This document shows positions 22,312 through 59,421 of a stretch of 64,000 nt of DNA, piece by piece (the first letter of the stretch is position 1; every line of letters begins with the position of its first letter). A program made the translations under genes and the position numbers. Below the pieces are notes generated by a model. It saw only the letters and a program-made list of their open reading frames with translations, was not told the DNA's origin and searched no databases. The stretch is from a virus (taxonomy: Duplodnaviria; Heunggongvirae; Uroviricota; Caudoviricetes), in the IMG/VR virus record IMGVR_UViG_2778261223_000007, positions 12,132-76,131 of that record. One strand, 5' to 3'.

Positions 22312-23018
22312 TGGATATCTGCATTCTTGAAAAGCCATCAATGACCAGCATTGAGATCGCGGAGCTGGTGGGAAAACGTCATGACAATGTGAAGCGTACC
22401 ATTGAAACATTAGCCGAATCCGGCGTTATTGTTCGTCCTCAAATTGAGGATGAACCAAAAATAGATGTAATGGGGCGTTCTCGATTAATTCAGGTGTTCC
22501 GATTTAGCGACGAGCAAGGCAAACGAGACAGCATCATTGTAGTCGCACAGCTTTGTCCTGAGTTTACTGCCCGGCTGGTGGACCGCTGGCGCGAACTGGA
22601 AGAACAAGTACGCCAGCCGTTGACCGAAATAGAGATGATCGCCGCAATGGCTGCAAATGCAGTTCAGCAGCAAAAGCGGCTTCATGCTGTTGAGTCAAAG
22701 GTTAGCCAGGTCGCTGAAACCGTCGAGCAAATCAAGAAGGGCAATATGCCAGATGGCTACATTGGCTACCGCCAGCTGGCGGCGAAATGTGGCCTGACCG
22801 AAGCCAAATGCCGTAACCTGGTTAACGCTTACCGGATTCCCACCGATACACATGAGTTTTTAACTCCAGAGGGGGTATTGTCGCGTCGTTCCATCGTGGC
22901 CTTATCTCCCTTCATGAATGCTTTTAACCGGATGATGTCGGAGGCTGAACACCGAGGAAAACGCTGGTATCACCCCAAAATGGGGCAATTCCAGGTGATC
23001 GGTTGGGGAGGTGAGTGA
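22311..23018 (+). CDS. antirepressor, Rha-family N-terminal domain
   Basis: 235 aa; MTSIEIAELVGKRHDNVKRTIE matches the phage Rha regulatory-protein signature; paralog of 58495..59421. Confidence 0.6.
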   Translation: MDICILEKPSMTSIEIAELVGKRHDNVKRTIETLAESGVIVRPQIEDEPKIDVMGRSRLIQVFRFSDEQGKRDSIIVVAQLCPEFTARLVDRWRELEEQVRQPLTEIEMIAAMAANAVQQQKRLHAVESKVSQVAETVEQIKKGNMPDGYIGYRQLAAKCGLTEAKCRNLVNAYRIPTDTHEFLTPEGVLSRRSIVALSPFMNAFNRMMSEAEHRGKRWYHPKMGQFQVIGWGGE

Positions 23019-23215
23019 TGGACATCATGCAGGCGGTAAAAAAAATCAGGGAAGGACAGGCTGAAGTGTGCCGCCGTAAAGCATGGAGTGTTGGTGTATG
23101 GGCCTGGCCTGATAATTACTCTACTACCGGATGGTTTTGTATTAATGGACTCCAGATCCGGGAAGTTGATTTATCGACGGCTGATATAGTCGGTAATGAT
23201 TGGATCGTGACTTGA
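23015..23215 (+). CDS. small DUF2829-like protein (split-off C-terminal domain of antirepressor)
   Basis: 66 aa, GTG start overlapping upstream stop; aligns with the C-terminus of the fused paralog at 58495..59421; ends DLSTADIVGNDWIVT. Confidence 0.45.
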   Translation: MMDIMQAVKKIREGQAEVCRRKAWSVGVWAWPDNYSTTGWFCINGLQIREVDLSTADIVGNDWIVT

Positions 23216-23223
23216 AGCGTGAT

Positions 23224-23248
23224 GCCCCGGCCTGGCCGGGGCTTTTTT
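23224..23248. terminator. terminator hairpin between convergent genes
   Basis: CCCCGGCC-TGG-CCGGGG followed by CTTTTTTC; a near-identical hairpin occurs after the paralogous antirepressor at 59434..59455. Confidence 0.55.
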
Positions 23249-23733
23249 CATGCCTCATTAGTTGAGGTTGCTGCGTCTCCGACTGGTAACAGAGCGGTAT
23301 TGCGTGGTTCGCCAGCAGGCCAGCGATAGCCAGACACTCTTGATGTTGGGAATGCGCGAATATTAACCGCATCCCCCTGGTTCCCACCCAGGACAAGCAG
23401 ATCGCCATTGGCGCGGCGTCCGACAACGAAGCCTACGTGCCCACCGCCTACACGGGTAAATACAACGATACATCCGTATGCCGGTGTATCTAATTTCTCG
23501 CCCCAATCCAGATAGGATTTTGCCGACTCAAATCTTGTTGAGCGGATGCCTACACGTTCCAGCATTGCACCGACAAATGCTGCGCACCACGGCGTTTCAT
23601 CGTCTTTAATTCCGCCGCGCTTGATGTCGCGCCAGAACTGAACGATTTCAGGGTTGTGTTTAGCGCCTTTTATTTCAGTCAGGCCAATGTGCTTACGGGC
23701 TTCAATTAGCCAGCGAGGTTCAATGTTTGCCAT
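23248..23733 (-). CDS. NlpC/P60-CHAP-like amidase family protein (TIGR02594-like)
   Basis: 161 aa; conserved Cys (TPWCAAFV) and His (GGGHVGFV) arrangement typical of this family (from memory). Confidence 0.5.
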   Translation of the reverse strand: MANIEPRWLIEARKHIGLTEIKGAKHNPEIVQFWRDIKRGGIKDDETPWCAAFVGAMLERVGIRSTRFESAKSYLDWGEKLDTPAYGCIVVFTRVGGGHVGFVVGRRANGDLLVLGGNQGDAVNIRAFPTSRVSGYRWPAGEPRNTALLPVGDAATSTNEA

Positions 23734-23884
23734 ATTTTTCTCCCGGTCATGGGTTAATAAGTAGGCAAACTATGGGGAGTATGTGATTTTGACGGTAGTA
23801 TCGTCCCCCTGAAAATAACATTCTCCATACCCTCTCAACCGTACCGCATAGCGGAATTTTTTACGGTTTAGAGGGGGAAATCCT

Positions 23885-26800
23885 TTGGACAAACTACTTC
23901 ATTCAATCAGTGAAGCCTCCAGCTTAGGCGAACTGATTGAAATTGTTAGTCGGTTGCATAAATTACGTGCTGTTGCGACCTTTGGCGTCAGGAAAGCCGA
24001 TGGCGTCAGTATTCAGAAAACACGCCGGGCAGCAAATAATGCCGCAGTAAATCTTCTTAATTCCCTTCCGCCCGGCTTCGATGGGGCGAAATTAACTGAC
24101 GAACAACGTCAGATTCTTGCCGGGTATACCGGTGAAGGCGGCCTGACAGATGGTGAGGGCAGCCAATACGAATACTACACGCCACAGTTTATGGCTGAAG
24201 GTATATGGGATCTGTTTGCTGACTACGGTATTGATGGCGGGCACGTACTGGAACCATCAGCGGGCACAGGTATTTTCCAGGAGACAAAACGGCAGGGCAT
24301 GATAATGACCAGCGCGGAACTGTCTCCGATTTCTGGTCGAATAAACCAGCTTTTGCACCCGGAAGACGATGTGAATATCGGGGCGTTTGAGGCGCTGGCG
24401 GCGAAAGATGCAATGTATGACCACGCTGTTGGTAACGTACCGTTTGGTGAAGGGCGTTCCGGCGTTGCCGGGCTTGATCCGGCATATGCAAACGAGAAGA
24501 ACGTTGGCAATTACTTTGTGCTGCGCACGATCGACAAGGTTAAGCCTGGTGGGCTTATCGTATTGGTGGTGCCAAATGGCATGACCGATGGTACGAAATA
24601 TAAAAAATTGCGCGATAAAGTCAGCCGTAAAGCGGAATTTTTGGGCGCACATCGTATGCCTTCCGGTACGTTCAGCGAATCCGGTACAGATACCGTGGTG
24701 GACGTATGGGTATTGCGTAAACACCCGGAAACCTTCCTGGAGATGATCCCCGACACGGATGATTCAACACTCAAATCGGCAAACGTCCTTTGGGATACCT
24801 TCCTCAAAGGAAAATGGTTTACAACCGAAGGGAAGCGATTTGTTTACGGCGACATGGAACGTGCCAGCTTCCGCAATACCCTGGTGGTGAAAAAAGACGG
24901 TCGTGTATCCAATGAGTCGATGAAAACCGCGCTATCTCGTCGCTTTGATAGTCGCATCAATTGGGATTTGCTCGGCGTAACTACTCAGGCATGGCAGGGC
25001 GCGAAAGTGGGCGATAAACGCCTTGTAGGCGGTATCTGGCATGAGTTTGATGGTCTGAAATGGGTTAAGGACACGACAACCAAATCCTCCGCGCTTGATG
25101 TAAGTCGATATGGTGTTTCGACGTTTGGCGATCTGCAGATCGCGTTCCAGTCAACAAACGGGATTCTGGCTTTGTCATGGGACCAGATATCGGCGATCGC
25201 GTCCGACTATCCATCGGTTGTCAGTGATGAAGTGGCAGCAATGATTCGCTTTGCTGGCAAGCAGCGAGAAAAAGATAGAGAGCGCGTTATGCGCGGTGCG
25301 CTGATAGGGCAGTTGATCAACAAGGCACTTGATTTGCGTAACCTGGGGGTGAACGTTGATGACAAACTGGCAGATGCATCCCGCCTGGCGGCAGCAGAAG
25401 TTGCGAAGTATGGACCACCACACGCCATTAAGCTGAATGGGCTTGCTGAAGCTGGCGCTAAAAACTGGATGACGTTCACTGGCAATGTGAAACAGGATGG
25501 TTCCACTTCTGACCTTCTGGCAGGGCGACTTGATGTAACGGATGGTGCTGCCGGTATTGACTTTACACGTCCTGAACAAGTGATAGCACATCTTTTCAGT
25601 GATGTAGCCCTTAATCCTATAACGCTGGGAGACTTTCGTGAGGCGTTTGCTGGTGAACTGCCAGAGGACGACGACGCGGCCCTTGAATACCTGGCGAAAT
25701 TTGATGATATCGCTATTGATGGGTATGGCTGTCTGCTGCCGATGGACCGCGCCACCAGCGGCGATGTTGCAACCAAAACAGCACTGCTGGTGGGCTGGCG
25801 TGATGCGTCAACAGGTGAGCAGAAAGCGAACTTTGAGCGTCAGTTGGCGAAAATCGAAGAGAAACGCATTTTCACGCCACTAAATAAAGTCACCGTTAAT
25901 CTGAATGCCCGCTGGCTGGATCGCCGCTTGATAAAAGAGTTCTTGGCAGAGCAGGGCTATGACGAGTTTAAGTACACTGAACCTGATCTGAAGGTCGTCG
26001 ATGGCATTCTGGTATCTCCGGACGATTACGAAGGTAAGGACGGGGTATTTACCGGCTATCAGCTACGAACCGTAAACGGCAAAAACGGGAATGAGTTCAA
26101 GAAGGCCAACAATAAAGACGGCTTCCTGAACCAGTTAGAAAACTACCTGAACGGTGTTAAACCGCGTGGGCAGAACGCTAACGAGTACCTGGATAAAATT
26201 GCTCAACTGGAAGTTAGCTTTAACGACTGGTTACGCACCCACCCGCAGGCGGATCAGATAGCCCGTGACTATAACGACGCATTCAATGGTTTCATTCCGT
26301 TCACACATTCTGACGCACCGCTTGGCCTGGAAGGGATTAGTGGAAAGCGCATTCCTCTGACTTATCAGAATGAAGAAGTTCGGCGCTTGTCAGAAGATGG
26401 GCGTGGCATCATGGGATTTGGTACCGGGCTGGGTAAAACCACGACCGCGCTTGCGCTTGAGGCGTATAACTTCGAAACAGGTCGCACTAAACGCACGTGT
26501 ATTGTTGTTCCGAAGGCGGTTTATCAGAACTGGTATCACGAGGCACAGAGTTTCTACAGTGCTGATGCCTTCGCCAATATGATGTTTATCGGTTTGGATG
26601 AAGTTCGTGATGACAGCGGAAATATTCTGACCGCGCCGGTGCTTGATGAAAATGGCGAACCACGCCTCGACAGTAACGGGCAGCCTCTTACCAGAAATGT
26701 TGTGAAAGAGTCCTCCAGCGCCGTTATCGTTCAGCGTATGAACATGATCCCGTCGTCAAATTGGCGAACGGTCATCATGACAAAAGAACAATTCGCGTCT

Positions 26801-29800
26801 ATCCCGCTACGAGAAAAAACCATCGAGGAGAACTCACAGCAAGCTGTCTTTAATGCTGTGGAAATGGGGCGTCTTGACCTGGCGTCCGGTAAACACCGTG
26901 ATGCGCAGAAGAAGAACAAGATTAAGGATCAGGCCGCGAATACCGGTACAACGAAGAAGCAAAATATCCCGTACTTTGAGGATATGAACTTCGATAGCGT
27001 GATTGCCGACGAGGGGCATAACTACCGCAACTCCTTTAATGCCGGGCGTGAAGCGGGACAACTGGCATATTTGCCTAACCCGGCAGTATCCAAGATGGCC
27101 CGCGACATGGCTGTAAAAGCTGCGTACATGATGAAACGCAACAACGGGCGTGGTGTAGTCATGCTGACGGCAACACCGCTGGTGAACAGTCCGATTGATG
27201 CCTTCAACATGCTGTCTACTGTCATTCCGCAGGAAGAGTGGATGCGTATGGGCATCATTACGCCTGATGATTTCGTTCGTGTGTTTGGCAAAACAGCCAC
27301 AGTTCAGGTCCAGAAAATTTCCGGGGAAGTGGAAGAGAAGCAGGGGCTGGTGGGCTTCCAGAACCTTGACGGCCTGCGTGGTATTTTCCATCGTTGGGCC
27401 ACTCTGAAGACTGCTGCAGATGTCGGAGCGACGGTTAAAATTCCCGACATCATCGAGAACACCTTGCAGATCCCGATGACAGGGGAGCAGGAGACTGCTT
27501 ATGAAGAGCTTCGTAAGCGTGCTCAGGAGTTAAGTCGCAATGATGAGCTGACAGTCGATGAAAACGGGCATATCACTAACGACAAACCGGATGATTTCAT
27601 CTTCTCCATCATCCGTGACATGGATAAGGTTGCTATAGACCCGGATCTGTATGCCAGTGCGATTACATTCCAGTTCCCCGTTGAGCTTGCAGACCAGGTA
27701 AAAGCTATTGCTGATGCCTTGCCAAAAGTAGCTGGCGGTAAAGTGGCAGATGATGTTGATGAGGCCGAGGAAGACGGCGCTGGCGGGCTGGTCAGTACGC
27801 GTACCAGCAAGGTAGTGAAGACCGCTTTTAGTGAACATCCGACGCATGTTGAAATACGTGCCAGCATTGAACTGGAAGCTGAAATACTGAAGGCCATTGC
27901 GGCTGCCGGCATTGATATGCAGCAGGTATCGCACCCCATCCCGCCGAAGTATGCCGCGCTGATCGAAAATCTTCGTGAAGGTCTGAAGAACGGTAAGCAG
28001 ATCGTCTTTATTGATGAAAAAGCCCAGCACCAGAAGCTGCGCCGTATTATCGCCAGTGCACTGCAAATGCCGGAGCAGGAGATTGGCATTATCAATGCGA
28101 CGACAGTTAGCCAGGCTGGTGGCATCAAACTGAAGAAGGTGAATAAGCCGACCGAACCTACTCCAAACAAAAACGGTGAATACAAAGAAGGGGCATGGGA
28201 AACCTACTACAGCAAACTTGCCCAATATGAGGATTATCTCTCCGCTAAAAATGATGCTGGCCTTGAGGGCATGGAAGGTATTGCCGCCGACTATAACGAA
28301 GGTCGCACGCGCATCATAATCTGTAACAAGAAGGCTGAAGTAGGTATTAACCTGCACATCGGGACAACCGATATCCACCACCTGACACTACCCTGGACAC
28401 CAGCCAGTATCGACCAACGAAATGGGCGCGGTGCGCGCGTAGGTTCACCGCAAGAAAAGGTCAATGTTCACTACTATTGTGGCAAAGGCACATTCGATGA
28501 CTTCCGTCTGGATACGCTTAAACGTAAGAAAGACTGGATCAAGATGGTGATGACCTCCGACATGTCAGAGATCGCCAATGGTGATGCGGATGATGCTGAT
28601 GAACGCGCCATTATGCTGGCGGCAAACCCGGAAGAACGCCGCGCAATCATGGCTCGCCAGGCGCAAGAGCGTGAAGAACGTCTGAAACTGAAAGCACAGC
28701 GCGAGGCCAACAATGCTCTCGATATCTACCTGAAAGCGGCAAACGCCGCCGGAAAAGATATCGGCATGATGGAGACAGAACTGAAAAGCGCGATGGAACA
28801 GATAGAGTATTACCAGCGAAATCTTGACGACCTGATAAAAGCGGGTACGAACAGGAATGGGCAAAAATACGCGCTTGAGCAGTTGAGTAGCTACAGAAAA
28901 CGTGCGCGGGTGCTGCGGTTTGCGATCACCAGGGCAAAAGACGCGGATACCATAATGAAACGCTCTCGTGGTGATGTGGAGCGCGCTATTAAGTCTGGTG
29001 TGCTGGATATCAGTATCGATGTTATTCAGAACCCACAGGAATATATGCGCACTGACAAGAATATCCTGTTGCATAAAGGTAGTTATTACCGTGCAGTCAT
29101 TGATGATCGCGAAACAACAGCGATTGTCCGGGTGGAAAAAATTGACGGTGAAAAAGCACAATACCTCTGCCGTATCGCCTGGCTGGATAGAGCAAGTCGT
29201 TACGCTCGAGCACCGGGGTCAATCGTTACATTGCCGTTTGACTCTGTGATTGAAGCGGTAACTTTTGAAGAGGGGGTAGCTGAATCGCGCGCAACGGCTG
29301 CGCGAGGTGTTCAGTGCCACCAGCTATCAACAATACTTACTCGCGATCAGTTCTATGATGCTATTCGCAATGGGGTAATGAATGTTATTGCTGGTAAACC
29401 TGGTAATGCATGGGGCGGTGGGTCAGCTATTAAATACTGGGCATATCGCACAGATGATGGTCAGATCGCGCTGTCATCGGCCTATGATGGCGTGATAGGC
29501 CAAAAAATCGGGCGAGCATCGGATATAGCACCTGAGCGATGGATATATCCTGATGGCAACGACGAGGCGCTGAAGCGTGAAGTGGCAAAAATACAAGCCA
29601 GTGATAACCCGCTGAATATCGTGGACGGCGAGGGATTCCTCCAGGCATTGTATGGGTATGATTACATCCAGGGAATGCAGGCATGGGGCGCACAGGCAAC
29701 GATGGATGATGTTGCCCAGGAGTTCGAAAACTGGATGGCTGGGCGTGGTCTGTCAGGTCGTTCGCTTAATAAAGTCACTTCTGAAGATATTCTTAGCTTG

Positions 29801-30721: not shown

Positions 30722-30757
30722 CAGATAAGGAGCGGCCCCAACTGGGGCCGAATTTGA

Positions 30758-31192: not shown

Positions 31193-31194
31193 CC

Positions 31195-31455: not shown

Positions 31456-31777
31456 AAATAACAGGTTGGGTAAATGCCATGCGATTTACCCTCCTTGTTG
31501 ATTAAGGTCGCTCTTTACTCTAAAAGCAAATCCGACCTGTTGCATATAGACCATCCTTGAGTAGTATCTCTCTTGTTTTACAAATCTAACGTTGTTGTTA
31601 TTATTTCGCATATTTACTATCAATTGGTGTGTTAGAAAAATAGCGCGAAAGAGAAGGCGTCGCAGTGAATATTCTGAAACATCCCCACATGCCGCAGCTC
31701 TTAGAGAACTGGAGAAAAACCCAGATCTAATCAAAAGGAACCATGAGCATTACGAGCAGGTTCGCGTCCTGGACTGG

Positions 31778-32086
31778 ATGTATCGCAATATGCGTTATGT
31801 GTATGAGCATACTCACGCCACTCCAAACGGTGGCCTGCGAGGCATAAGGACGGCAATAAAAATGGTGGCAGAGGGCCAAAAGAAGGGATATCCCGATCTT
31901 TCTATAGACCTTGCTTGTGGGGGATACCACGGAATGCGCATTGAGATGAAACATGGGAGAAATCGCCTGACTCCCGAACAACTCGTCTGGATGACTCGCC
32001 TCACAGAAGCCGGTTACTACTGCTTTGAGGCGCGCAGTGCCGCTGAAGCCATAAAAGCTATCACGGAGTATGTTTGTCTTGATTAA
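31778..32086 (+). CDS. VRR-NUC domain nuclease (PD-(D/E)xK); N-terminus uncertain, frame open upstream to 31592
   Basis: GYPDLSIDLACGGYHGMRIEMKHGRNRLTPEQLVWM matches the VRR-NUC core (PDL...E.K...Q..W). Confidence 0.55.
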   Translation: MYRNMRYVYEHTHATPNGGLRGIRTAIKMVAEGQKKGYPDLSIDLACGGYHGMRIEMKHGRNRLTPEQLVWMTRLTEAGYYCFEARSAAEAIKAITEYVCLD

Positions 32087-32100
32087 ACGGAGAAATCGTT

Positions 32101-32301
32101 TTGCGTTTACATAACGTGGCAGAACTTATCCCTGCAGGAACTAATGCTATCGCTCGTCGTCGCTCATGGCAGCAGGCTCTATGTATTGAGATCTCGAAAC
32201 GTATCAATGGAAGTTTTGAAGCTCGCAATATTGTTACTGGCGATAAGGTTCACATAACCCCGGAAAGTGCAAGCGCTGATGATTGGGAGTTTGTACATTG
32301 A
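32101..32301 (+). CDS. small protein with DUF2829-like C-terminal motif
   Basis: 66 aa; AIARRRSW ... SASADDWEFVH resembles the R..W / D.W pattern of the other DUF2829-like ORFs; non-ATG start. Confidence 0.3.
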   Translation: MRLHNVAELIPAGTNAIARRRSWQQALCIEISKRINGSFEARNIVTGDKVHITPESASADDWEFVH

Positions 32302-32597: not shown

Positions 32598-32604
32598 TTG
32601 CATA

Positions 32605-36844: not shown

Positions 36845-36920
36845 GGCCCCTTAGCTCAGTGGTTAGAGCTGGCGACTCATAATCGCACGGTCACCGGTTC
36901 AAGTCCGGTAGGGGCCACCA
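36845..36920 (+). tRNA. tRNA-Ile2 (anticodon CAT, lysidine type) or tRNA-Met
   Basis: 76 nt, near-identical to E. coli ileX over most of its length (GGCCCCTTAGCTCAGTGGTTAGAGC.GGCGACTCATAATCGC...GGTTCAAGTCC...GGGGCCACCA). Confidence 0.85.
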
Positions 36921-37374: not shown

Positions 37375-37950
37375 ATGTTAATGGCGAACGATAACGCATA
37401 TGCAGAAGAAGATCTCATTTTGAGTGACTTCATAGGGAAGCGTGAACGCTGGACCCAAAAGCGAGAGGAACTTTACGCCTCATTAGTTCGCAAAGGCGTC
37501 AATATCGAAACCGCACAGAGCGGCGATATGACAGTGGTAAGCGTTGGATTGCACGGTGTAAGCGTGTCAGCAATCAATCATGAGCCATACGTTGCGTTAT
37601 CCGAGTCAATGGTAAGGTTAGTTAAGTTCCTGAAGTACACAGAAGCGAATAATGTAATCATTGGCAAAAAGAATATCCCTTTTTCCTCGGCTTTTTACTG
37701 GATGATGAAAGGGCTTGATGCCCGGCGGACATCATGGCCTAAAGGGAGCTATATATCGATGTTCCGTGGCAGCATTGGCAGCAAAGAAAAGCTCTTCGAA
37801 TTCTTGCCGGAAGAGGCATTCGATATTGTGGAAGGGTGCGATGTGATGGTGATGCCTCGCCTGGTAATGATGAATGGTGATTTACAGGCGCAGACAGACT
37901 GGTTTGCAACTGGTGTGGATATTATCGCGACTGACTGGGAGGCTTTCTGA
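37375..37950 (+). CDS. hypothetical protein with DUF2829-like C-terminal domain
   Basis: 191 aa, AAGGAG RBS; C-terminal AFYWMMKGLDARRTSWPKG ... DWFATGVDIIATDWEAF parallels the DUF2829-like ORF at 45597. Confidence 0.45.
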   Translation: MLMANDNAYAEEDLILSDFIGKRERWTQKREELYASLVRKGVNIETAQSGDMTVVSVGLHGVSVSAINHEPYVALSESMVRLVKFLKYTEANNVIIGKKNIPFSSAFYWMMKGLDARRTSWPKGSYISMFRGSIGSKEKLFEFLPEEAFDIVEGCDVMVMPRLVMMNGDLQAQTDWFATGVDIIATDWEAF

Positions 37951-41739: not shown

Positions 41740-42777
41740 TTACCAGAGCTTCGCGGCGTACTGCGTTTGGGGGAATGTGTATCCGTAACGTTCTTCGATT
41801 GCTTTGCCGTATTTTTTACGAGCTTCATTCAGTTTAATGCCGGTCAGGTCGTCTCCAGAGGCCATCATTACGTCTAACAATTCCAGATCCATTTTATCCA
41901 GCCTTGCCATTGCTTCACGTGATGTACGTATCTTACGCTCAATGATATGGCGAATAGCCGGATCGGCATCCTCCAGCATCTTAGCGGATTTCTGCTTAAG
42001 GCTTTCATTGCGAATATCGATGTTCCTTAAGATGTACGACTTCGCAACGTAGCTTGGCTGGTGTTTTTCCAGGTCACGAACACGATATAAGTTAAAATCG
42101 CCGAGAAGGCTGCAAGGTACCGATTCGACGCCAGAATAAATTGTAATGCTCCGGCGTTCACCAACATTATTGACAACGGGGATCGTTGTCTTCGGTTGTC
42201 TTGCGAAAACCAATGCGCCATGTGCGCCAACTCTAAAGCGAGAAAGGGCATTGCTGCCTTCGATGTTTGTTGTCAGCACAACATCTGTATATGCCTCTTT
42301 ACGCGCCCGGTAGATCTCGCCTTCAGGCTCAGCTTCAAAGAAGCGCTGTTCTTCTTCAAGAGCACCTACGATTTGAGAAAAAACCCTATTTTTCAGGCTT
42401 TTCTTTATGATTTTGTCGTATTTTTTTAGCAATTGTTCACGTGTAAATGTACGTGTTGTTGTAGCGCTTTGCACAACGACATGCGTGCTTTGATTGGTGT
42501 CCTCAATGATGAATGGGATCGGAGAATATACAGACTCAACAATGTTCGACGCTTTGCCGTCGGCATCGCGGCACATGTCAACGAAGGCTTTCCATTCAGC
42601 AAGACATTTTTCAGCTTCTTCTAATATGTTTTGGTCATGCGTTAATGCAACATGGCGGAATTCCTCGCCAGCATAACTGGTATCATGGAAAACAGAGTTT
42701 GCGACCACCAGCTCTTTCCACCGTTCAGCGGTTTGCAGGAACCGTTTGTACTCTTTCTCGATCGACTTCTTACTCAT
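41740..42777 (-). CDS. hypothetical protein at the immC-equivalent position (candidate repressor or immunity function)
   Basis: 345 aa, convergent with pacB; operator-like motif 42790..42807 overlaps its start region; no recognisable similarity to P1 C1 by eye. Confidence 0.5.
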   Translation of the reverse strand: MSKKSIEKEYKRFLQTAERWKELVVANSVFHDTSYAGEEFRHVALTHDQNILEEAEKCLAEWKAFVDMCRDADGKASNIVESVYSPIPFIIEDTNQSTHVVVQSATTTRTFTREQLLKKYDKIIKKSLKNRVFSQIVGALEEEQRFFEAEPEGEIYRARKEAYTDVVLTTNIEGSNALSRFRVGAHGALVFARQPKTTIPVVNNVGERRSITIYSGVESVPCSLLGDFNLYRVRDLEKHQPSYVAKSYILRNIDIRNESLKQKSAKMLEDADPAIRHIIERKIRTSREAMARLDKMDLELLDVMMASGDDLTGIKLNEARKKYGKAIEERYGYTFPQTQYAAKLW

Positions 42778-42987: not shown

Positions 42988-43019
42988 TAACTTTAAATAA
43001 TTGGCATTATTTAAAGTTA
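42988..43019. other. rox-type recombination site (32 bp: 14-bp inverted arms, 4-bp spacer TGGC)
   Basis: TAACTTTAAATAAT-TGGC-ATTATTTAAAGTTA is the reverse complement of the rox site as I recall it; 14/14 arm complementarity; 150 bp upstream of the Cre-family gene. Confidence 0.8.
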
Positions 43020-44618: not shown

Positions 44619-45091
44619 AAACTTATTACCCATCTCTGAATTGTTACCCGTCTTCCTATCCAGGATTGTCCGGGAAGCTGTTAGCTCTATTAGCTAAAGC
44701 ACCTACGGAATGGTTTAAGCCAGTCGTTATCAATCCACACTTCCTGGATTACGGATCTGTTCGCACTCGTAACGAACTCAAAAACCTACTGGCGCATGGA
44801 TTCATTCGACACCGTGCCGGTAAAGGCTATCAGTTATCGATTGCGCCAGAAGAGGCCGTGCGGCTATTCGCATATCGTGACAGCCAGACAAAAGCTCGGG
44901 TAATAGCTCAAATACTTCATAACGGCAGCACCTATGCCCGCCAGTTTGGCGGCGACACGTCGCAGTTCTTGCGGGCGGTGCGATCGCTGGAGGAGCAAGG
45001 AGTTATTGAAAGTTCCTGTCTTCCTGTTCCAACCGTTCCACATATCAAACGTCGGGTTTACACCTTCACGCAGAGAGCTAAAAAACAATGA
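44615..45091 (+). CDS. hypothetical protein, possible winged-helix
   Basis: 158 aa; overlaps neighbours by 4 nt on both sides. Confidence 0.4.
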   Translation: MKTYYPSLNCYPSSYPGLSGKLLALLAKAPTEWFKPVVINPHFLDYGSVRTRNELKNLLAHGFIRHRAGKGYQLSIAPEEAVRLFAYRDSQTKARVIAQILHNGSTYARQFGGDTSQFLRAVRSLEEQGVIESSCLPVPTVPHIKRRVYTFTQRAKKQ

Positions 45092-45582
45092 TTTACGTAA
45101 AAGTGAAACGCCTACATCCGGCAGCAAAACTTCCAGCTTATGCCACCTCCGGATCGGCGGCGATGGATTTTGAGGCTGTTGAAATAAAACCATGTGTCGA
45201 TAGCAATGGTGCAATTTCCTCAAGCTGGTGGGTGTACACCGGATTGGCTATGGAGATCCCGCCCGGCTGGTGTCTGAAACTCTATCCGCGATCCGGATTG
45301 GGCTGCAAAAAACATACTCGCCTGGCTAACTGCGTAGGAATTATCGACTCCGATTATCGCGGCGAAATCATGGCAAAACTGATTACTGATCCCGGCGGGG
45401 AAGGCGTTTGTCTCAAGCCTGGAATGGCTGTCATGCAAGGAATTTTTGAGCGTGTTGAACAAGTCTCACTAGTCGAGGTTGAGGAACTCAACGAAACGGA
45501 ACGTGGTGATGGTGGCTTTGGTAGCACATCGGAAGGCCACTTTGAAATTAAGCGTTCACCGCTTCAGTACGAAAAGTTATAA
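45088..45582 (+). CDS. dut: dUTP diphosphatase (dUTPase)
   Basis: 164 aa; motifs YATSGSAAMD, PRSGLG, GIIDSDYRGE, RGDGGFGSTS match the trimeric dUTPase motifs. Confidence 0.8.
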   Translation: MIYVKVKRLHPAAKLPAYATSGSAAMDFEAVEIKPCVDSNGAISSSWWVYTGLAMEIPPGWCLKLYPRSGLGCKKHTRLANCVGIIDSDYRGEIMAKLITDPGGEGVCLKPGMAVMQGIFERVEQVSLVEVEELNETERGDGGFGSTSEGHFEIKRSPLQYEKL

Positions 45583-45596: not shown

Positions 45597-46037
45597 ATGA
45601 ATAACATGGCAACGAAAGAGCTTTTTAAGTTCCTTCCAAAATACAAAGCTCACAAAAAAAATGGAACCACGGTCATCATTACGGATGACAACGGCGTGAT
45701 GATTAATCTTACCGGGAGCGTAACTATTTCTGCTGGTGGCATCACCACCCAGCAAGAAGAAATCGACCTTGAAGCAGCCGACTTTTCTGACGCGCTGATG
45801 TGGCTGAAGGATGGCAAGAAAGTTGCTCGACGCGGGTGGAACGGCGAAAACCAATTCTGCTGGCTGGTTCCTGAAGGACAGTACCCGGCACGAATGGAAG
45901 CCATTAAGGGATATTTCCCCGGCGACCTCGTTCCGTATGGTGCTTATTTCGCCTTAAAAAATGCACAAGGTGTAGTTGTTCCGTGGGTTCCTTCTGTAGG
46001 CGACTTACTGGCATGTGACTGGTTTGTGGTGGAGTGA
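45597..46037 (+). CDS. DUF2829-like protein (Tad2-family fold candidate)
   Basis: 146 aa; ALMWLKDGKKVARRGWNGENQF ... PWVPSVGDLLACDWFVVE fits the DUF2829 pattern as I recall it. Confidence 0.5.
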   Translation: MNNMATKELFKFLPKYKAHKKNGTTVIITDDNGVMINLTGSVTISAGGITTQQEEIDLEAADFSDALMWLKDGKKVARRGWNGENQFCWLVPEGQYPARMEAIKGYFPGDLVPYGAYFALKNAQGVVVPWVPSVGDLLACDWFVVE

Positions 46038-50577: not shown

Positions 50578-50587
50578 AATTTATGCC

Positions 50588-51260: not shown

Positions 51261-51439
51261 ATCAGTCTCCTTTAGTGCGCAGGTGGTTTTTCCAGCGGTT
51301 TTGCGCCGCGCTGCCCTTATCTCGGACTCCCTCTCTGGCAATTCCAGAAAATGAAAACAACACCACACGACGATTGCTAACTCTCAACCACTGGCTGGGA
51401 TAGCAAAGTCTGTATACACGGGAGATAAGCATCTTAGCT

Positions 51440-52373: not shown

Positions 52374-52386
52374 TGCGTTGTTCCCA

Positions 52387-53382: not shown

Positions 53383-53421
53383 AATGTATACCGACTCTGT
53401 TTTGTTCCGAGCGGTAAAATA

Positions 53422-53454
53422 ATGTGTTAGAAAACTAAAATCAATGTTCTAACG
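53422..53454 (-). promoter_or_regulatory. paired operator-like motifs in inverted orientation (GTTAGAA ... TTCTAAC, 14 bp apart)
   Basis: Full motif at 53422..53441 plus inverted partial copy at 53444..53454; upstream of the minus-strand operon starting at 53382. Confidence 0.5.
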
Positions 53455-53480
53455 TAATTTTGAGTGCGTAAATGATTTGA

Positions 53481-54173: not shown

Positions 54174-54481
54174 GCGGCAACCTTCTCCCGCAGCCAGATA
54201 CAAACTGGACCATCTTCAGTGTCATGAATAGAGCCAACAAACCAGCCTTCACCCTCTGGTCGCTCCGGTTCCCAGGCGGCAATATCGGGACCAGCTGCGT
54301 CCAGATCAAAATCATCTTCATCCATACTGCGAATAGTCCACTGAAGATTATTTTCCTTCATCCAGGCGTCAAATTCCTCAGTGGAAATATATTCACGACC
54401 TGCGCAAAACTTCTCATACTCCGGATGTGTCCAGCAGCCATATTCATCACGTTCTACCGGCATTTCTTTAATGATGCTCAC
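54170..54481 (-). CDS. hypothetical acidic protein
   Basis: 103 aa, operon context. Confidence 0.4.
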
Positions 54482-54702
54482 TCTTCATCCTCCAAGTCGG
54501 CAACGGCCTCCATCACATCAGAACCGCGAATAACCGCAAAAGCACGGCAGGCCATTTCAAACACCTGTTGTTCTTGCGGATGCGGTGACTCCCAATACTT
54601 AAAACCAGGTCGATGCTCGTAACCCATCATGGAATAAAAATCGCCAGCAAGTTCAATCGCGGCATCAACAAGTTCGCGATTTGTCATCGTCTGTTCTGTC
54701 AT
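54478..54702 (-). CDS. hypothetical protein
   Basis: 74 aa, overlaps neighbours in operon. Confidence 0.35.
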   Translation of the reverse strand: MTEQTMTNRELVDAAIELAGDFYSMMGYEHRPGFKYWESPHPQEQQVFEMACRAFAVIRGSDVMEAVADLEDEE

Positions 54703-54973
54703 TTGGTTTCTCCTGTCTGAACATCACTATCATCAGGTCGCCTTTTATCGCTATTCTGGCTGTTGTGCCTGGTTCAATGCGGCTAAGTTCAAATGCGTCA
54801 TAGAACGCTTCTAATGCCTTCTGGCGTAGTTCCTGTTTGCGCCGTTTTTTCCACTCTTTTAGGAAAATGGAACCCAGCCATCGCCAGGTACGGGACATGA
54901 TGTAAAGCCAACCGAGAAGTGCCAGACCGGTATTTAGGGCCGTATCGATCGTTATCGTGGTGTCGATATTCAC
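54665..54973 (-). CDS. membrane protein, hypothetical
   Basis: 102 aa; hydrophobic helix LALLGWLYIM. Confidence 0.35.
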   Translation of the reverse strand: MNIDTTITIDTALNTGLALLGWLYIMSRTWRWLGSIFLKEWKKRRKQELRQKALEAFYDAFELSRIEPGTTARIAIKGDLMIVMFRQEKPNDRTDDDKSRTC

Positions 54974-55251
54974 TGTGGTGGCTCCTGCTTTTCTGCCTTT
55001 AATACCATGCGAGAACCATCATCCAGCTCCCAATTAATTTCACCGCCTTCAGCCATGACTAGATGCCAAACGAGTTGTGCGGCCTCGTTGGTTACATCAC
55101 GACCGCGATCATTGCCGACACGACGTTTTGTTCCATCCCCTAAGTCACGCATTTTTGCCAACACGATGGTTTTTGATAGCGGTGAAAAACCAAGCTGTAG
55201 TCGTGCGGTATTACTCACTGTTTGCCTCCTTTGCGAAGCTGTTCCGCCCAT
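54970..55251 (-). CDS. hypothetical protein (start uncertain)
   Basis: 93 aa open frame; no clear RBS. Confidence 0.25.
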   Translation of the reverse strand: MGGTASQRRQTVSNTARLQLGFSPLSKTIVLAKMRDLGDGTKRRVGNDRGRDVTNEAAQLVWHLVMAEGGEINWELDDGSRMVLKAEKQEPPQ

Positions 55252-55703
55252 TCTTCAAGGGATTTCTCCGCATATTCACCGGACAGGCCATCAATCGGGT
55301 GCGGTTCATTAGCCAACTCTTCTTTCGCTGACAGAATCATGCGCGTAACGTCGAAAACTTCACGTAAAGACTTATTGATAAATCCGTGGTTGAAAGCAGC
55401 AGCAAGACGGCTTGCGGTATAGTTAATCCCCTCGTTGCGAGCCGCCGCACGAATTTCAGCCAGAAAAGCATCGGTGGCTGGAGTTTCGCTGTGGTGCAGG
55501 GCATCGTTGATAATCATTGCAGCAACTCCGGCCTGACCTGCATCCGTGACCGACACATGCTCAAGAGTTACAGCCATTGCATGTTTCAGCCCAGCATTCT
55601 CCGCCGCCAGCGCAGCACACGCTTTCTCAAGTCGGGAAATTTCCGTTACATACTCAGCGTTACGCTCTGCCAGTTGTGCGGGCGTTAAACCTTCAGACTT
55701 CAT
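55215..55703 (-). CDS. hypothetical protein
   Basis: 162 aa. Confidence 0.4.
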   Translation of the reverse strand: MKSEGLTPAQLAERNAEYVTEISRLEKACAALAAENAGLKHAMAVTLEHVSVTDAGQAGVAAMIINDALHHSETPATDAFLAEIRAAARNEGINYTASRLAAAFNHGFINKSLREVFDVTRMILSAKEELANEPHPIDGLSGEYAEKSLEEWAEQLRKGGKQ

Positions 55704-56010
55704 ACACTCTCCTTTCGAAATAAACGTACTGATTAATCATGCCTAGGGGCATTTCGAGTTTTTCCGCGATCTCACGGCGGGGAACACCACACCGATGAAG
55801 CTGCCGTGCCAGTTCTATATCGCCCTGCCGGTATTTGGCTGACGGGTGAAAGTCTCCTTTCAGAATCATGCAGATCCGCAGTTGCCGCGCTTTGGTTCTG
55901 ACAGCACTACCGGTACGCCCGATCAGCCTCCCAATACTCTCGACTGTCATAGTCCCGGCGCACTGGCGGAGTATCATGATTTCTGCCCTTCCCCATCCCC
56001 GCCAGCTCAC
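55693..56010 (-). CDS. putative HTH DNA-binding protein
   Basis: 105 aa; two HTH-like stretches (ESIGRLIGRTGSAVRTKARQL; RREIAEKLEMPLGMINQYV). Confidence 0.35.
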   Translation of the reverse strand: MSWRGWGRAEIMILRQCAGTMTVESIGRLIGRTGSAVRTKARQLRICMILKGDFHPSAKYRQGDIELARQLHRCGVPRREIAEKLEMPLGMINQYVYFERRVYEV

Positions 56011-56618
56011 GCAGAACTCCTTCTAACCAAAAGCACGCCATCTTCAGAAACAACGTTGCAGGACTTCAGGTAATTCATTGCCTCTTTCGGTAATGGATTC
56101 TTTGGATCGGCGTTTGCCAGGGATTTCGATAACCTCATGATAAATTTGATCATTACCTTCTGGCGGAGCTTGTGCTCATGAGATAAAGACAGGTAATAGG
56201 AAATGGTATGGGCTAAACGCTCACGAAGCTGTTCTGTGCCGTGATATACAGCAGCGATATCACACAGTGCATTGACCAGTTCCCGGTAAATATGCGGAGC
56301 AACCTGGCATTCAATGTTGGTTGGTGACTCATAAATTACAGTCAGCCCCAGCTTTTCAGCCAGCGCGTGCTCTGCACGAGCACCAATCGATTCCTCCCAT
56401 CGATTGAGCAAGTAGATCGCATCAGCAGAACGCACCATTGCCAGGCAAATATCCATGTATTCACTCTGACAAAGGCCACCAGGTAACACAGCTGGATTCA
56501 GAACGATATGCCCTTCAGCCATCAGCTCGCTCGCTTTCGCATTAAACGCAGCACGGTTGTAATCTGGATAACCAGTCATCGGCCCCGCGATGTAAATTTT
56601 CAAAACACGTTTCACCAT
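56007..56618 (-). CDS. DUF4406-like protein (nucleoside 2-deoxyribosyltransferase-like fold)
   Basis: IYIAGPMTGYPDYN motif; start set at MVKR, which overlaps (TGATG) the stop of the upstream small ORF. Confidence 0.45.
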   Translation of the reverse strand: MVKRVLKIYIAGPMTGYPDYNRAAFNAKASELMAEGHIVLNPAVLPGGLCQSEYMDICLAMVRSADAIYLLNRWEESIGARAEHALAEKLGLTVIYESPTNIECQVAPHIYRELVNALCDIAAVYHGTEQLRERLAHTISYYLSLSHEHKLRQKVMIKFIMRLSKSLANADPKNPLPKEAMNYLKSCNVVSEDGVLLVRRSSA

Positions 56619-56773
56619 CAAAATTTCCCCAAAATCGTGACGCAAAACATAAGCACTGCGAAAAGCTCAATACCAAGCTCAAGTAGCGCCAACGCCCCGA
56701 AAAACAACACATAGAACAGGCCAATCTCATTCACAGATGGCTGGTGGATCGCACTTAAAGCTATAAGCATCAT
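56618..56773 (-). CDS. small hydrophobic protein
   Basis: 51 aa, GGAGG RBS, coupled to downstream gene; not in ORF track (below 60 aa). Confidence 0.35.
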   Translation of the reverse strand: MMLIALSAIHQPSVNEIGLFYVLFFGALALLELGIELFAVLMFCVTILGKF

Positions 56774-56810
56774 GTCCTCCAAACAGTTATCAGGAATGAT
56801 ATTAATGTTT

Positions 56811-56829
56811 TGTGTTAGAAAATCAATTT
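56811..56829 (-). promoter_or_regulatory. operator-like motif (rc AAATTGATTTTCTAACACA)
   Basis: Motif family member; in the divergent region between 56773 (minus) and ref (plus). Confidence 0.5.
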
Positions 56830-56890
56830 TGAATATCTAATCATTTTGATCAATCATAGAAAAATCGCTGAAAAGTAAGAGGCAGCCATC

Positions 56891-57469
56891 ATGCAGAAAC
56901 AGAGCTATTGGGAGAAACAGAGACAAAAAGCCATGCAAAAATTGGCTGACCCAGCCTGGCGAGAGGAACAAAGGGCAAAGTGCCTTCAACAAGCTCAACG
57001 CCAGCAGCAGCGAGCGAGAGAAAAAGCCGCATCGCCTGAATATCGGCAAAAGAAAATTGAAAAAGCAAAGCAATATGAACAGCGGAGAAAAGATAAAGCT
57101 GTATCCGCTCCGTCCAAAAAAACACGCACGTCACGCGGCCTGAAAGGCAGATCACTCACAGCCGATGAACGCCGGATACAGACCGCTATCGGTGCTCTCC
57201 CCTGCATTGCCTGCCATATTCACGGGCAACATAGCCCAGTGGTATCCCTGCACCATATCTTCGGGAGAACGGCAGAGAACGCGCATAAATATGTCCTCCC
57301 TTTGTGTAAATGGCACCACCAGTACGCAGCGCCAGCCGAGGTCCGAGAACAATATCCCTGGCTGGTCCCTGTTCATGCTGACGGAAAAATAGGCGGAAAA
57401 GCAGATTTCATGCGGCACAATGCCGATGAAATGACGTTGTATCAGATGGCGATTGAATTGATAAATTAG
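56891..57469 (+). CDS. ref: HNH endonuclease, Ref-like (recombination enhancement function)
   Basis: 192 aa; basic N-terminus, then ALPCIACHIHG...SLHHIFGRT...LPLCKWHHQ HNH core and the AAPAEVREQYPWLVPVHADG block that I recall from P1 Ref; flanked by operator-like motifs. Confidence 0.7.
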   Translation: MQKQSYWEKQRQKAMQKLADPAWREEQRAKCLQQAQRQQQRAREKAASPEYRQKKIEKAKQYEQRRKDKAVSAPSKKTRTSRGLKGRSLTADERRIQTAIGALPCIACHIHGQHSPVVSLHHIFGRTAENAHKYVLPLCKWHHQYAAPAEVREQYPWLVPVHADGKIGGKADFMRHNADEMTLYQMAIELIN

Positions 57470-57480
57470 TTTTCTAACAT
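57463..57480 (+). promoter_or_regulatory. operator-like motif AAATTAGTTTTCTAACAT
   Basis: Motif family member; overlaps the ref stop. Confidence 0.5.
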
Positions 57481-57800
57481 TTTAAGTTGAATTGTAAATT
57501 TCTCCGATGTACATTCACTACCGATTGGCACACCGGTCAACTTTTTGAGACAAACTGTTTAGTTTTTCGTATTATTGCCGCCGCTATACCTATGGCGGTG
57601 CAATATAGGTGGCTGAAAAGCCCCCGTTGACTCACGGTGTTCCAGCCTTTATTGCGCCGCCACCAGACCGTGGAACAGTCGATGGCGGCTCCGAAAGCAA
57701 GGAGTCACTACACTATGAACAGCTACTGTCTTTTCCCATCACTCGTTGTCCGCCACTCACGCGATAATCTGCATTCTTTACTCGCGCTGGGGGTGTCAAA

Positions 57801-57968
57801 ATGACCGTTCGTTACCTCAACTTTCAAATCCAGAACATCACTGGCGGTTGCTATGACTGGTTTGTCACTCTCGGAAAAGAAGTGATCACCGGGAAGCTGG
57901 ATGAAGTGAAAACTAAAGCAATGGCCTACGCCTGCAAGCAAGCCCGGAAGAAATCCGCCAAAGCATAA
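57801..57968 (+). CDS. small ORF (candidate)
   Basis: 55 aa, GGGGG RBS; followed by terminator at 58073..58094. Confidence 0.25.
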   Translation: MTVRYLNFQIQNITGGCYDWFVTLGKEVITGKLDEVKTKAMAYACKQARKKSAKA

Positions 57969-58072
57969 AATACTGACTGTTGCGCCCTGGCATTATCGTG
58001 GGGTATATTTCTACGGCACCTTAGAAAAACGGGTGCCGGGATTGGAACCCCGGATAATGTCAAAGGCGACAC

Positions 58073-58094
58073 AGACGCCGAAAGCGTCTTTTTT
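58073..58094 (+). terminator. rho-independent terminator
   Basis: GACGC-CGAAA-GCGTC followed by TTTTTT. Confidence 0.6.
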
Positions 58095-58139
58095 GTGTCA
58101 TGCCATCGCACAGCCATACGTAGCGTTTAGCTCAGAGAT

Positions 58140-58270
58140 CAATGGTAGTGCTGGCTGGGCTGCCGAAAGGCAGGCCGGTTCCCTTTGACGCCGGTAGTTC
58201 CAACCCAGTCAGTGCTACCGCCATTGAGATTGGAACCTCACGCGGTAGCTCCTTAACTTAGTCAAAGGAG
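58140..58270 (+). ncRNA. candidate c4-like antisense RNA region of immI-like module 2
   Basis: CCTTTGAC at 58182..58189 is complementary to GTCAAAGG at 58261..58268, which overlaps the AAGGAGG RBS of the icd-like ORF; further pairs GTTCCAA/TTGGAAC and GGTAGTGCTG/CAGTGCTACC (with G-U pairs). Confidence 0.25.
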
Positions 58271-58279
58271 GCTGCCAAT

Positions 58280-58495
58280 ATGGCTACTATCCCTACCCCA
58301 ACTCATTCTGAATTTATCTGGCGTTTCTATTCCTGCCAAAAACACCTGTATATCTGCGTCATGGCTGCTACCGAAGCAGAGGCGCGCTCATACCTTCCCG
58401 AAGAACCCTGCATTTTTGCTGCTCGCTTCACTCTTGATGCGATGGAGATCCTCAATTACTGGAATCTGCCGATGAACTGCGTGGAGGCGCACTGA
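58280..58495 (+). CDS. Icd-like small protein (immI-like module 2)
   Basis: 71 aa paralog of 22087..22311; AAGGAGG RBS; stop overlaps antirepressor start. Confidence 0.5.
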   Translation: MATIPTPTHSEFIWRFYSCQKHLYICVMAATEAEARSYLPEEPCIFAARFTLDAMEILNYWNLPMNCVEAH

Positions 58496-59421
58496 TGAAT
58501 CTGTCCATCTCTCAAAAAGCGACAATGACCAGCATTGAGATCGCGGAACTGGTAGGTAAGCGCCCTGATAACGTTAAACGCACCATTGAACACCTGGCGG
58601 AACGGGGCGTAATATCTTTTCCTCAAATTGAGGAAAAGCCCACCGCAGGCCGCCCGGCGAGCTATTACGTCTTTGAAGGCGAACAAGGCAAGCGTGACAG
58701 TATCATTGTCGTCGCACAGCTTTCTCCCGAATTTACCGCCCGGCTGGTGGACCGCTGGCGCGAACTGGAGAATGCCCGGGTACAGTTAAAATCAAAAGCC
58801 GAAATCCTGGCTGAAATGGCGCAAATGCATCTTGAGCATGAACGCCGGATCAACGCCGTTAATGCCCAGGTAGCCGAAGTATCGGCACAAGTGTCCAAAG
58901 TCGCTGAAACCGTCGAGCAAATCAAGAAAGGCAATATTCCGGAAGGCTACATTGGCTACCGCCAGCTGGCGGCGAAATGTGGCCTGACTGAAGCCAAATG
59001 CCGAAACCTGGTTAACGCTTACCGGATTCCCACCGATACGCATGAGTTTTTAACTCCCGATGGTTTGCTTGCGCAACGCTCCATTGTGGCCCTGGCCCCC
59101 TTCCGGAAAGCCTTTAAGCAGGTGATGTCGGAGGCAGAACCACGCAATAAACGCTGGTATCATCCAAAGATGGGGATGTTTCAGGCAATCCACCATCCTG
59201 TGCCTGAAAGTCCAAAGGCAAACCTGTCGTTGCATACCGCCAGAGAGAGGATTAAAACAGGCTATGCAATCGTATGCCGTCGAGCATCCTGGCCTGAAGG
59301 TGTATGGGTGTGGCCCGAAGGTGGATCACGAAAGCACTGGCGCACTATCCGGGATGGGAAAATCCATGCGATTGATTTAGCTCCAGAGGATGTTGTTGCT
59401 ACGGACTGGATTGTTAGTTAA
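58495..59421 (+). CDS. antirepressor: Rha-family N-terminal domain fused to DUF2829-like C-terminal domain
   Basis: 308 aa; N-terminus MTSIEIAELVGKRPDNVKRTIE; C-terminus YAIVCRRASW...DLAPEDVVATDWIVS corresponds to the separate ORF 23015..23215 of module 1. Confidence 0.6.
   Translation: MNLSISQKATMTSIEIAELVGKRPDNVKRTIEHLAERGVISFPQIEEKPTAGRPASYYVFEGEQGKRDSIIVVAQLSPEFTARLVDRWRELENARVQLKSKAEILAEMAQMHLEHERRINAVNAQVAEVSAQVSKVAETVEQIKKGNIPEGYIGYRQLAAKCGLTEAKCRNLVNAYRIPTDTHEFLTPDGLLAQRSIVALAPFRKAFKQVMSEAEPRNKRWYHPKMGMFQAIHHPVPESPKANLSLHTARERIKTGYAIVCRRASWPEGVWVWPEGGSRKHWRTIRDGKIHAIDLAPEDVVATDWIVS

Follow-up and report, generated by a model that had tools for sequence, protein, structure and literature searches.

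The five open reading frames (ORFs) described here lie in a 64,000-nucleotide stretch of viral DNA, referred to below as the window, which corresponds to positions 12,132 to 76,131 of the IMG/VR record IMGVR_UViG_2778261223_000007. By megablast, the window matches Escherichia phage D6 (NC_050154.1/MF356679.1) at 98.8–99.5% nucleotide identity over the whole region. D6 is a P1-like phage-plasmid (plasmid prophage) whose gene annotation agrees with the window, and its rox site maps near window position 43004. All five ORFs are on the + strand. They are orf17 (23018..23215; 65 amino acids), orf11 (32101..32301; 66 amino acids), orf6 (37375..37950; 191 amino acids), orf114 (45597..46037; 146 amino acids), and the antirepressor gene ant2 (58495..59421; 308 amino acids), in which the domain of interest occupies residues 244–308 of the product (59224..59418) and is referred to as Ant2-C, its family as Ant-C. 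In the D6 record, orf114 is a "DUF2829 domain-containing protein," ant2 (there orf82, 58495–59421) is "anti-repressor Ant," and orf6, orf17, and orf11 are hypothetical. The five domains fall into three tiers: the canonical Tad2 protein orf114, the divergent, full-size orf6, and three domains of ∼65 residues that we term mini-Tad2.

An initial annotation of this DNA had singled out these ORFs as sharing a basic (K/R)(K/R)..W segment and a C-terminal tail. All five are present at the positions it gave and translate as it described. The GTG start at 23015 that it assigned to orf17 has been replaced by the ATG at 23018, which is the likelier because of its GGAGG Shine-Dalgarno sequence, its TGATG overlap with the stop codon of the upstream gene ant1, and its agreement with the 65-residue D6 annotation. 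The basic motif holds in general, but in orf114 it reads RRGW, where a single residue and not a pair separates the basic residues from W. Similarly, the tail is found in four of the five, the exception being orf11, which ends S..A.DWEF. Among the 776 six-frame ORFs of at least 40 amino acids in the window, the tail motif D..[AG].DW occurs in only four, all of them among the five named, and it occurs in none of 200 composition-preserving shuffles. The shared pattern is therefore beyond chance. A hidden Markov model (HMM) of the Ant-C/orf17 family, run against the same 776 ORFs, gave orf11 (E = 3e-4), orf6 (E = 0.02), and orf114 (E = 0.6) as its best three non-self matches. Four HMMs built from the subfamilies were also run over the window and the rest of D6 (49 kb), and neither yielded a sixth copy.

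Membership of the Pfam family PF11195, Tad2-like (DUF2829), was judged by whether the whole protein reached the curated gathering score of 25 bits. By this measure the grouping under DUF2829 is only partly borne out: a fold or family common to the five is supported, for orf11 only as probable, and orf114 and orf6 pass with 81.3 and 39.1 bits, respectively, but orf17 (15.1 bits, E = 0.034), Ant2-C (12.3 bits, E = 0.26), and orf11 (no match) fall below the gathering score. The ranking of orf114 as the strongest member and orf11 as the weakest stands. A search of NCBIfam yielded nothing useful. The genes are carried by about 120 PLSDB plasmids of Escherichia coli, Salmonella, and Shigella, and among 50,697 phage records D6 is the sole carrier of orf6, orf11, and the Ant-C domain.

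On the evidence of its sequence, orf114 is a bona fide Tad2 protein because of its Pfam and Protein Data Bank (PDB) matches, its nearly gap-free alignment through the insertion, and its retained pocket residues. Its Tad2 domain (residues ∼58–146, nucleotides 45768–46034) follows a 57-residue N-terminal linker and matches PF11195 over residues 62–145 (E = 7.7e-23). A phmmer search of PDB sequences places ModTad2 (9EIB/8V3E) first at E = 2e-20, followed by HgmTad2/AcrIIA7, SPO1 Tad2, and SptTad2; identity is 45% to ModTad2 (over 88 residues), 44% to HgmTad2, and 38% to SPO1 Tad2. The alignment with ModTad2, which runs through the insertion between strands β2 and β3, contains one gap, of a single residue. 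In SPO1 Tad2, the main contacts to glycocyclic ADP-ribose (gcADPR) are made by W25, N26, W73, and D79, with further contacts from S76, T78, I63, T65, D67, and H71. Alignment to 8sme_A, read against the published contact list, shows that the equivalents of W25, N26, W73, S76, and D79 are all retained in orf114.

The most likely function of orf114 is that of a sponge for a Thoeris signal. By homology, it would form a tetramer that sequesters the ADP-ribose-derived alarm molecule made by TIR proteins, and Thoeris defense would thereby be blocked. Our best guess for the ligand is the histidine-ADP-ribose (His-ADPR) of type II Thoeris because ModTad2 is the closest characterized relative, with gcADPR also possible. 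As a protein already annotated as DUF2829, orf114 is an ordinary new member of its family. Its counterparts in most P1-like relatives are 216–233 residues long, and in D6 the N-terminal half is replaced. The dUTPase gene dut (45088–45582) ends 14 nucleotides before orf114. In some relatives the dUTPase and Tad2 are fused as a single protein of 241 residues (P0035), and in others (P0046 among them) a C-terminal crAss001_48 domain (PF21825) is added to Tad2.

The second tier is represented by orf6, which consists of a 95-residue N-terminal part (residues 1–95) with no Pfam match and a divergent Tad2 domain (residues ∼100–191, nucleotides 37672–37947), of which residues 103–190 match PF11195 at E = 1.1e-9. 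When the profile of the orf6 family (A6) was searched against the PDB, the top seven matches were all Tad2 sequences, that to SptTad2 having an E-value of 1.8e-5. Homologues at 54, 42, and 22% identity are found on plasmids of Escherichia fergusonii, Enterobacter hormaechei, and Pantoea agglomerans, and in all three the gene keeps its position directly upstream of lpa-pacA. The β2-β3 insertion is full-size, and four homologues spanning 22–54% identity show no change at W121, W176, or D182, which correspond to W25, W73, and D79. The position of N26 is occupied by P or G in the family, and by P in orf6 itself. The orf6 family seems to be a separate Tad2 subfamily that conserves the pocket, and a ligand binder or sponge of different specificity is the most likely function; with three of the four core pocket residues invariant, orf6 would bind a related ligand via a changed pocket.

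The kinship of the smallest domains to Tad2 required less direct methods. The free-standing orf17 aligns without gaps to the C-terminal 65 residues of Ant2, at 40% identity (phmmer E = 1.5e-14), and the Ant2 C terminus matches phrog_7385 (E = 1e-13). Because their scores on PF11195 are subthreshold, the mini-domains are remote relatives of Tad2 and not formal Pfam members. Word-indexed homologue searches with proteins of 65–66 residues returned only 3–5 near-identical matches, too shallow for building profiles, and an exhaustive search of representative proteins, IMG/VR, and tblastn against PLSDB were therefore used. The exhaustive search, with a profile of Ant-C and orf17 against 1.84 billion representative proteins, gave just seven matches, and at library-wide significance it made no direct link to canonical Tad2. 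The connection was therefore made via two bridging sequences, P0133, which passes the PF11195 cutoff over the whole model (37.4 bits), and P0130, which falls just short of it (23.9 bits), together with profile-profile comparison. With hhalign, which was used in place of a fragmented hmmalign alignment of the mini-domains to the Tad2 HMM, the Ant-C family aligns end-to-end with a 32-sequence Tad2 alignment at a probability of 93.5% (77.5% without P0133). The one large gap coincides precisely with the β2-β3 insertion. The real alignment scores 39, and reversed or column-shuffled controls did not exceed 16. The best PDB sequence match of the Ant-C profile is HgmTad2, at a subsignificant E-value of 0.08.

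Structure prediction is in agreement. An AlphaFold2 (AF2) model of orf17, built from a six-sequence alignment, has a predicted local distance difference test score (pLDDT) of 92.9 and the element order α-β-β-β-β-α-β, and it displays the N-terminal helix, five-stranded antiparallel sheet, and short helix before the last strand that define the Tad2 fold. Foldseek matches 1–16 of this model in the PDB are all Tad2 chains, with a probability of 1.0 and TMq values of 0.73–0.77, and match 17 has a probability of only 0.06. ModTad2 is the top or joint-top structural match of both the orf17 and the orf11 models, the alignment underlying the latter having contained Ant-C sequences. Profile searches for orf114 and orf6 and structure comparison for orf17 gave positive results, and the case that orf17 and Ant2-C are homologous to Tad2, as judged from profiles and models, is strong.

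The mini-domains keep helix α1, the β-sheet, and the R-x-x-W and D...DW core. According to the hhalign alignments, all three lack the β2-β3 insertion (∼17–20 residues) and the equivalents of N26, which is replaced by P, S, or Q, and of W73, which is replaced by I or V. The equivalents of W25 and D79 are W267 and D300 in Ant2; in orf11, the position of D79 is S or E. The combination expected of a sponge, namely W25, N26, W73, and D79 together with an insertion carrying helix α2, is therefore absent from orf17, Ant2-C, and orf11. Because of the loss of the insertion and of the N26 and W73 equivalents, we infer that the mini-domains are Tad2-derived accessory modules and not canonical sponges for gcADPR or His-ADPR. 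The suggestion in the initial annotation of several anti-defense sponges would accordingly apply to orf114 and possibly orf6, but not to the three domains that are without these features.

The third mini-domain, orf11, is the weakest case. One homologue with 52% identity to it matches PF11195 over nearly the whole model with an E-value of 0.056, and phmmer with Ant2-C picks up orf11 at E = 3.7e-4 within the window. The orf11 family aligns end-to-end with the Ant-C family (hhalign probability 84–87%, score 32 compared with at most 11.7 in controls), and the motifs occupy equivalent structural positions. orf11 is present in about 119 PLSDB plasmids, and its position between a VRR-NUC (pmgM-like) gene and a pmgR-like gene is held down to 38% identity. 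It is a real, conserved gene, and it probably encodes a mini-Tad2 domain. The upstream pmgM-like gene (window 31592–32086), a "putative morphogenetic" gene, encodes a protein with a VRR-NUC nuclease domain (PF08774, 27 bits).

The other two mini-domains are associated with antirepressors. Two C4 antisense RNAs are found in the window, and because each precedes an icd-like gene and then an ant gene, the element carries two complete immI-type operons (21834–23250 and 58016–59421). Operon 1 comprises a c4 a1/b1 target element (21834–21886; Rfam RF03163, 54.4 bits), the C4 RNA (21954..22039, + strand; RF01695, 68.8 bits), an icd-like gene (22087..22311, + strand; "Icd-like" in the D6 annotation and present in the ORF list), ant1 (22311..23018, + strand), and orf17 as its final gene, after which lies an intrinsic terminator with an 8-bp all-GC stem and a run of T (23224..23250, + strand). 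Operon 2 comprises a C4 RNA (58138..58225, + strand; RF01695, 77.1 bits), an icd-like gene (58280..58495, + strand; D6 annotation and ORF list), and ant2; a match to an isrK-like small RNA lies ahead of it at 58016–58094. A C1-like repressor gene is located at 41740–42777 (ORF list and D6 annotation).

Both antirepressors are of the Rha type, exceeding the gathering score of 29.9 bits for PF09669 (Phage_pRha), with 37.2 bits for Ant1, of 235 residues, and 30.7 bits for Ant2. Ant2 also matches phrog_63, anti-repressor Ant, at E = 2e-64. Ant1 is a paralogue of the Ant2 body without the C-terminal domain, 66% identical to Ant2 residues 1–232, and it ends where the Ant2 linker begins. Its stop codon is overlapped by 1 nucleotide by orf17, which is in a different frame, has its own Shine-Dalgarno sequence, and is thus translationally coupled to ant1. 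From their sequences, Ant1 plus orf17 is the split counterpart of the fused Ant2. The fusion of the small domain to the antirepressor that had been noted initially is real, and it is mirrored by a split arrangement, a classic fusion/fission signal of joint working. Across 33 IMG/VR loci only the split and fused forms of the domain were found, and about 122 PLSDB plasmids carry orf17. That orf17 might be a recent pseudogene fragment of ant1 was ruled out by its own Shine-Dalgarno sequence and ATG, its confident fold, and its conservation in ∼120 plasmids, as well as by its 40% identity to Ant2-C, compared with 66% between Ant1 and Ant2.

The Ant2 C-domain is under purifying selection, with a ratio of nonsynonymous to synonymous substitution rates (dN/dS) of 0.09–0.20 against IMG/VR variants. 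The mini-domain would be a required partner of the Rha-type antirepressor, supplied in cis in Ant2 and in trans, through translational coupling, in the case of Ant1 and orf17. Its most likely role there would be that of an oligomerization or partner-binding piece, expressed only once C4 control is lifted. Two kinds of variant locus were also observed. In five D6-like IMG/VR contigs (L036–L040, e.g. L038 2256–3198), ant2 is frameshifted into overlapping ORFs of 212 and 120 residues, the second of which retains the complete mini-Tad2 domain at its end. A pseudogene, an artifact of sequencing, and a second natural route to splitting are all conceivable here. On the Salmonella plasmid pSa1423-160k (L045, 2429–2689), a degraded orf17 with an internal stop follows a truncated ant-like remnant, which shows that the immI operon decays in some lineages.

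Other P1/D6-like phage-plasmids, of ∼90 kb, also have free-standing mini-Tad2 genes, which are located in variable regions. The relatives P0130 and P0131 are of this kind, and at the loci L006 (4001–4291, 96 residues) and L007 (4001–4207, 68 residues) the gene lies between capsid/Ig-domain genes and a PAAR-like upfC.

The reading that we favor, with a probability of about 0.6, is that the D6-type phage-plasmid has diversified the Tad2/DUF2829 fold into a canonical member, orf114, a divergent binder, orf6, and mini-Tad2 accessory modules that include partners of antirepressors. Several observations weigh against it. The free-standing mini-Tad2 genes, namely orf11, P0130, and P0131, lie away from any antirepressor gene, which argues that the domain can also act autonomously. 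Retention of the W25 and D79 equivalents in Ant-C and orf17 leaves room for a reduced or different ligand pocket. Constraint on orf17 is weaker than that on Ant2-C, with a dN/dS of 0.35–0.77 calculated on very few substitutions. For orf11, there is no direct significant match to Tad2 profiles by Pfam, HMMER, local and global hhalign, or PDB profile search, and in the comparison of its AF2 model, the alignment for which included Ant-C sequences, the scores of PWWP and mS34 folds are little below that of Tad2. Finally, the preference for His-ADPR over gcADPR as the ligand of orf114 derives solely from relative similarity (77 bits compared with 41–48 bits).

Some of these same observations lend themselves to other explanations. 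It is conceivable, though we consider it unlikely, that all five are signal sponges, each tuned to a different messenger (1''–3' gcADPR, His-ADPR, N7-cADPR, or cyclic dinucleotides) and together forming a broad shield against TIR and CBASS defenses. The ligands of Tad2 proteins are already diverse, with SPO1 Tad2 binding gcADPR, ModTad2 His-ADPR, and HgmTad2 also cGG and cGAMP, and the signal of type IV Thoeris, N7-cADPR, is found in E. coli and is not bound by known Tad proteins. The location of free-standing mini-Tad2 genes in variable regions, which are typical accessory and anti-defense sites, and the W25 and D79 equivalents of Ant-C and orf17 point in the same direction. However, the mini-domains have lost the N26 and W73 equivalents and the whole of the insertion from which SPO1 Tad2 builds its V-shaped dimer and HgmTad2 and ModTad2 their second pocket. 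Moreover, a sponge needs to be abundant, yet two of the mini-domains are expressed only from tightly C4-repressed immI operons, and covalent fusion to a DNA-binding, Rha-type regulator would be unexpected for such a protein. A further reading is that the mini-domain of Ant2, and orf17 acting with Ant1, is a small-molecule sensor that gates the antirepressor, so that a host metabolite or immune signal would feed into the lysis-lysogeny switch. The descent of the domain from a ligand-binding fold, the purifying selection at the antirepressor end, its persistence alongside the antirepressor whether fused or split, and the retained W and D of the pocket are all consistent with this. It is nonetheless doubtful, as half of the canonical pocket and the insertion that builds the oligomer are gone, free-standing copies occur without an Ant partner, and the literature searched contained nothing linking Tad2 or DUF2829 with antirepressors. 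A more far-reaching version, in which a degenerate sponge has turned sensor, is a long shot: here a nucleotide-type signal of the host, such as an ADP-ribose derivative that TIR proteins produce when another phage is attacking, would switch the Rha-type antirepressor on so that the prophage escapes once the cell's abortive-infection alarm has gone off, with orf17 and orf11 as independent forms of the domain tuning or buffering this signal.

Homology itself may be questioned in the case of orf11 and conceivably of the other mini-domains, which might be generic small α+β proteins or SH3-like barrels in which RR..W and DW have arisen by convergence. For orf11, the lack of a Pfam hit, the failure of hhalign and HMMs to connect it directly with Tad2 profiles, and the Ant-C sequences in its AF2 alignment leave room for this. 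We regard it as quite improbable given the end-to-end alignment with the Ant-C family at a score of 32 where controls reach at most 12, the first rank of orf11 among the 776 ORFs with the Ant-C HMM, the motifs at matching structural positions, and the strong case for homology of orf17 and Ant-C. Least credible of all is that the DUF2829 proteins are toxins of type I toxin-antitoxin (TA) systems, as implied by the RefSeq product name "MW1434 family type I TA system toxin" borne by orf6 homologues in several plasmids (loci L046–L048). The name originates in a list of Staphylococcus aureus candidates drawn up bioinformatically, in which the passages on MW1434 give no functional test, and solved members of the family are soluble, tetrameric nucleotide sponges. 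We also rejected the label on the ground that orf6, orf114, orf17, and orf11 contain no hydrophobic segment of the kind that marks type I toxins, the maximum Kyte-Doolittle value over a 19-residue window being at most 1.41 (1.20 for orf6 and 1.41 for orf114). It looks like a misleading product name.

Elsewhere in the window, between 35154 and 36920, genes for tRNA-Asn, tRNA-Thr, and tRNA-Met(CAT) were identified on the + strand by both ARAGORN and Rfam, and one for tRNA-Ser(UGA) by ARAGORN alone. The RefSeq table for D6 places the Asn, Thr, and Ser tRNAs on the opposite strand and omits the tRNA at 36845–36920.

To our knowledge, Tad2 is the most widespread phage family known to disarm TIR-based immunity and has so far been described as a stand-alone sponge. 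We know of no previous description of an insertion-less mini-Tad2 subfamily, of its fusion or coupling to Rha-type antirepressors within a duplicated pair of immI operons, or of 5-fold use of the Tad2 fold in one element. That a widespread phage-plasmid lineage should use this fold five times, in part as a stripped-down version of ∼65 residues that escapes standard domain searches, and should have wired two of the small domains into the antirepressors of its immunity switch, through fusion in one case and translational coupling in the other, has consequences whichever way the question of ligand binding falls. Should the mini-domains have kept small-molecule binding, immune signaling would be tied to the choice between lysis and lysogeny. 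Otherwise, an anti-defense fold would have been recycled as a structural module, and domain-based counts of "Tad2 anti-defense genes" would have to separate pocket-competent from pocket-less members. P1/D6-like phage-plasmids carry resistance genes in enterobacteria, and orf114 and orf6 are candidate anti-Thoeris genes in these elements.

Among characterized proteins, the closest parallel is with ModTad2, from a Myroides odoratus prophage, which sequesters His-ADPR and blocks type II Thoeris. It shares with orf114 the W-N, W, S, and D residues of the pocket as well as the insertion, and orf114 differs in its additional N-terminal segment of 57 residues. From orf6 it is distinguished by the 95-residue N-terminal domain of that protein and by P in place of N26, and from the mini-domains by their lack of the N26 and W73 equivalents and of the insertion, which in ModTad2, as in HgmTad2, forms a second pocket. 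SPO1 Tad2 (Gp34.65; PDB 8SME/8SMF/8SMG), the founding 1''–3' gcADPR sponge of DUF2829, shows the same fold order, α1, β1-β2, insertion, β3-β4, α3, β5, and its chains are matched by the orf17 model with TMq values of 0.73–0.76. Helix α2 of its V-shaped dimer is part of the insertion, and the residues deleted in the mini-domains, equivalent to ∼36–59, take in this helix of the dimer interface. HgmTad2/AcrIIA7 (PDB 8KBI and others) belongs to the same family and is matched by the orf6 family profile at E = 1e-3. There, an insertion of 35–41 residues creates a pocket for cyclic dinucleotides, through which cGG and cGAMP are bound too; the D6 mini-domains, with almost no insertion, have gone in the opposite direction.

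A possible functional analogy for a 65-residue domain that contacts a repressor is offered by CarS, a small, β-rich antirepressor domain of SH3 topology that mimics operator DNA (PMC2926617). CarS has no sequence or demonstrated structural relationship to the mini-domains, and Ant2-C is basic (isoelectric point 9.1), whereas orf17 is mildly acidic. The antirepressors to which the mini-domains are attached are Rha/Roi-type proteins (PF09669). Notes in the D6 record liken them to HK97 Roi and Rha/Roi/KilA proteins, but compare other D6 genes with named genes of P1. The immI operon of P1 (c4-icd-ant1/ant2) resembles the D6-type operons in the order of its elements, with a C4 RNA first, then an icd-like gene, and then the gene for an antirepressor. 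The Ant1 and Ant2 proteins of P1 are two products of one reading frame. Operon 1 of the D6-type element likewise yields two polypeptides from its ant region, but the second is a Tad2-fold domain encoded in another frame and not the product of an in-frame restart, and the operon as a whole is present twice in the D6-type element.

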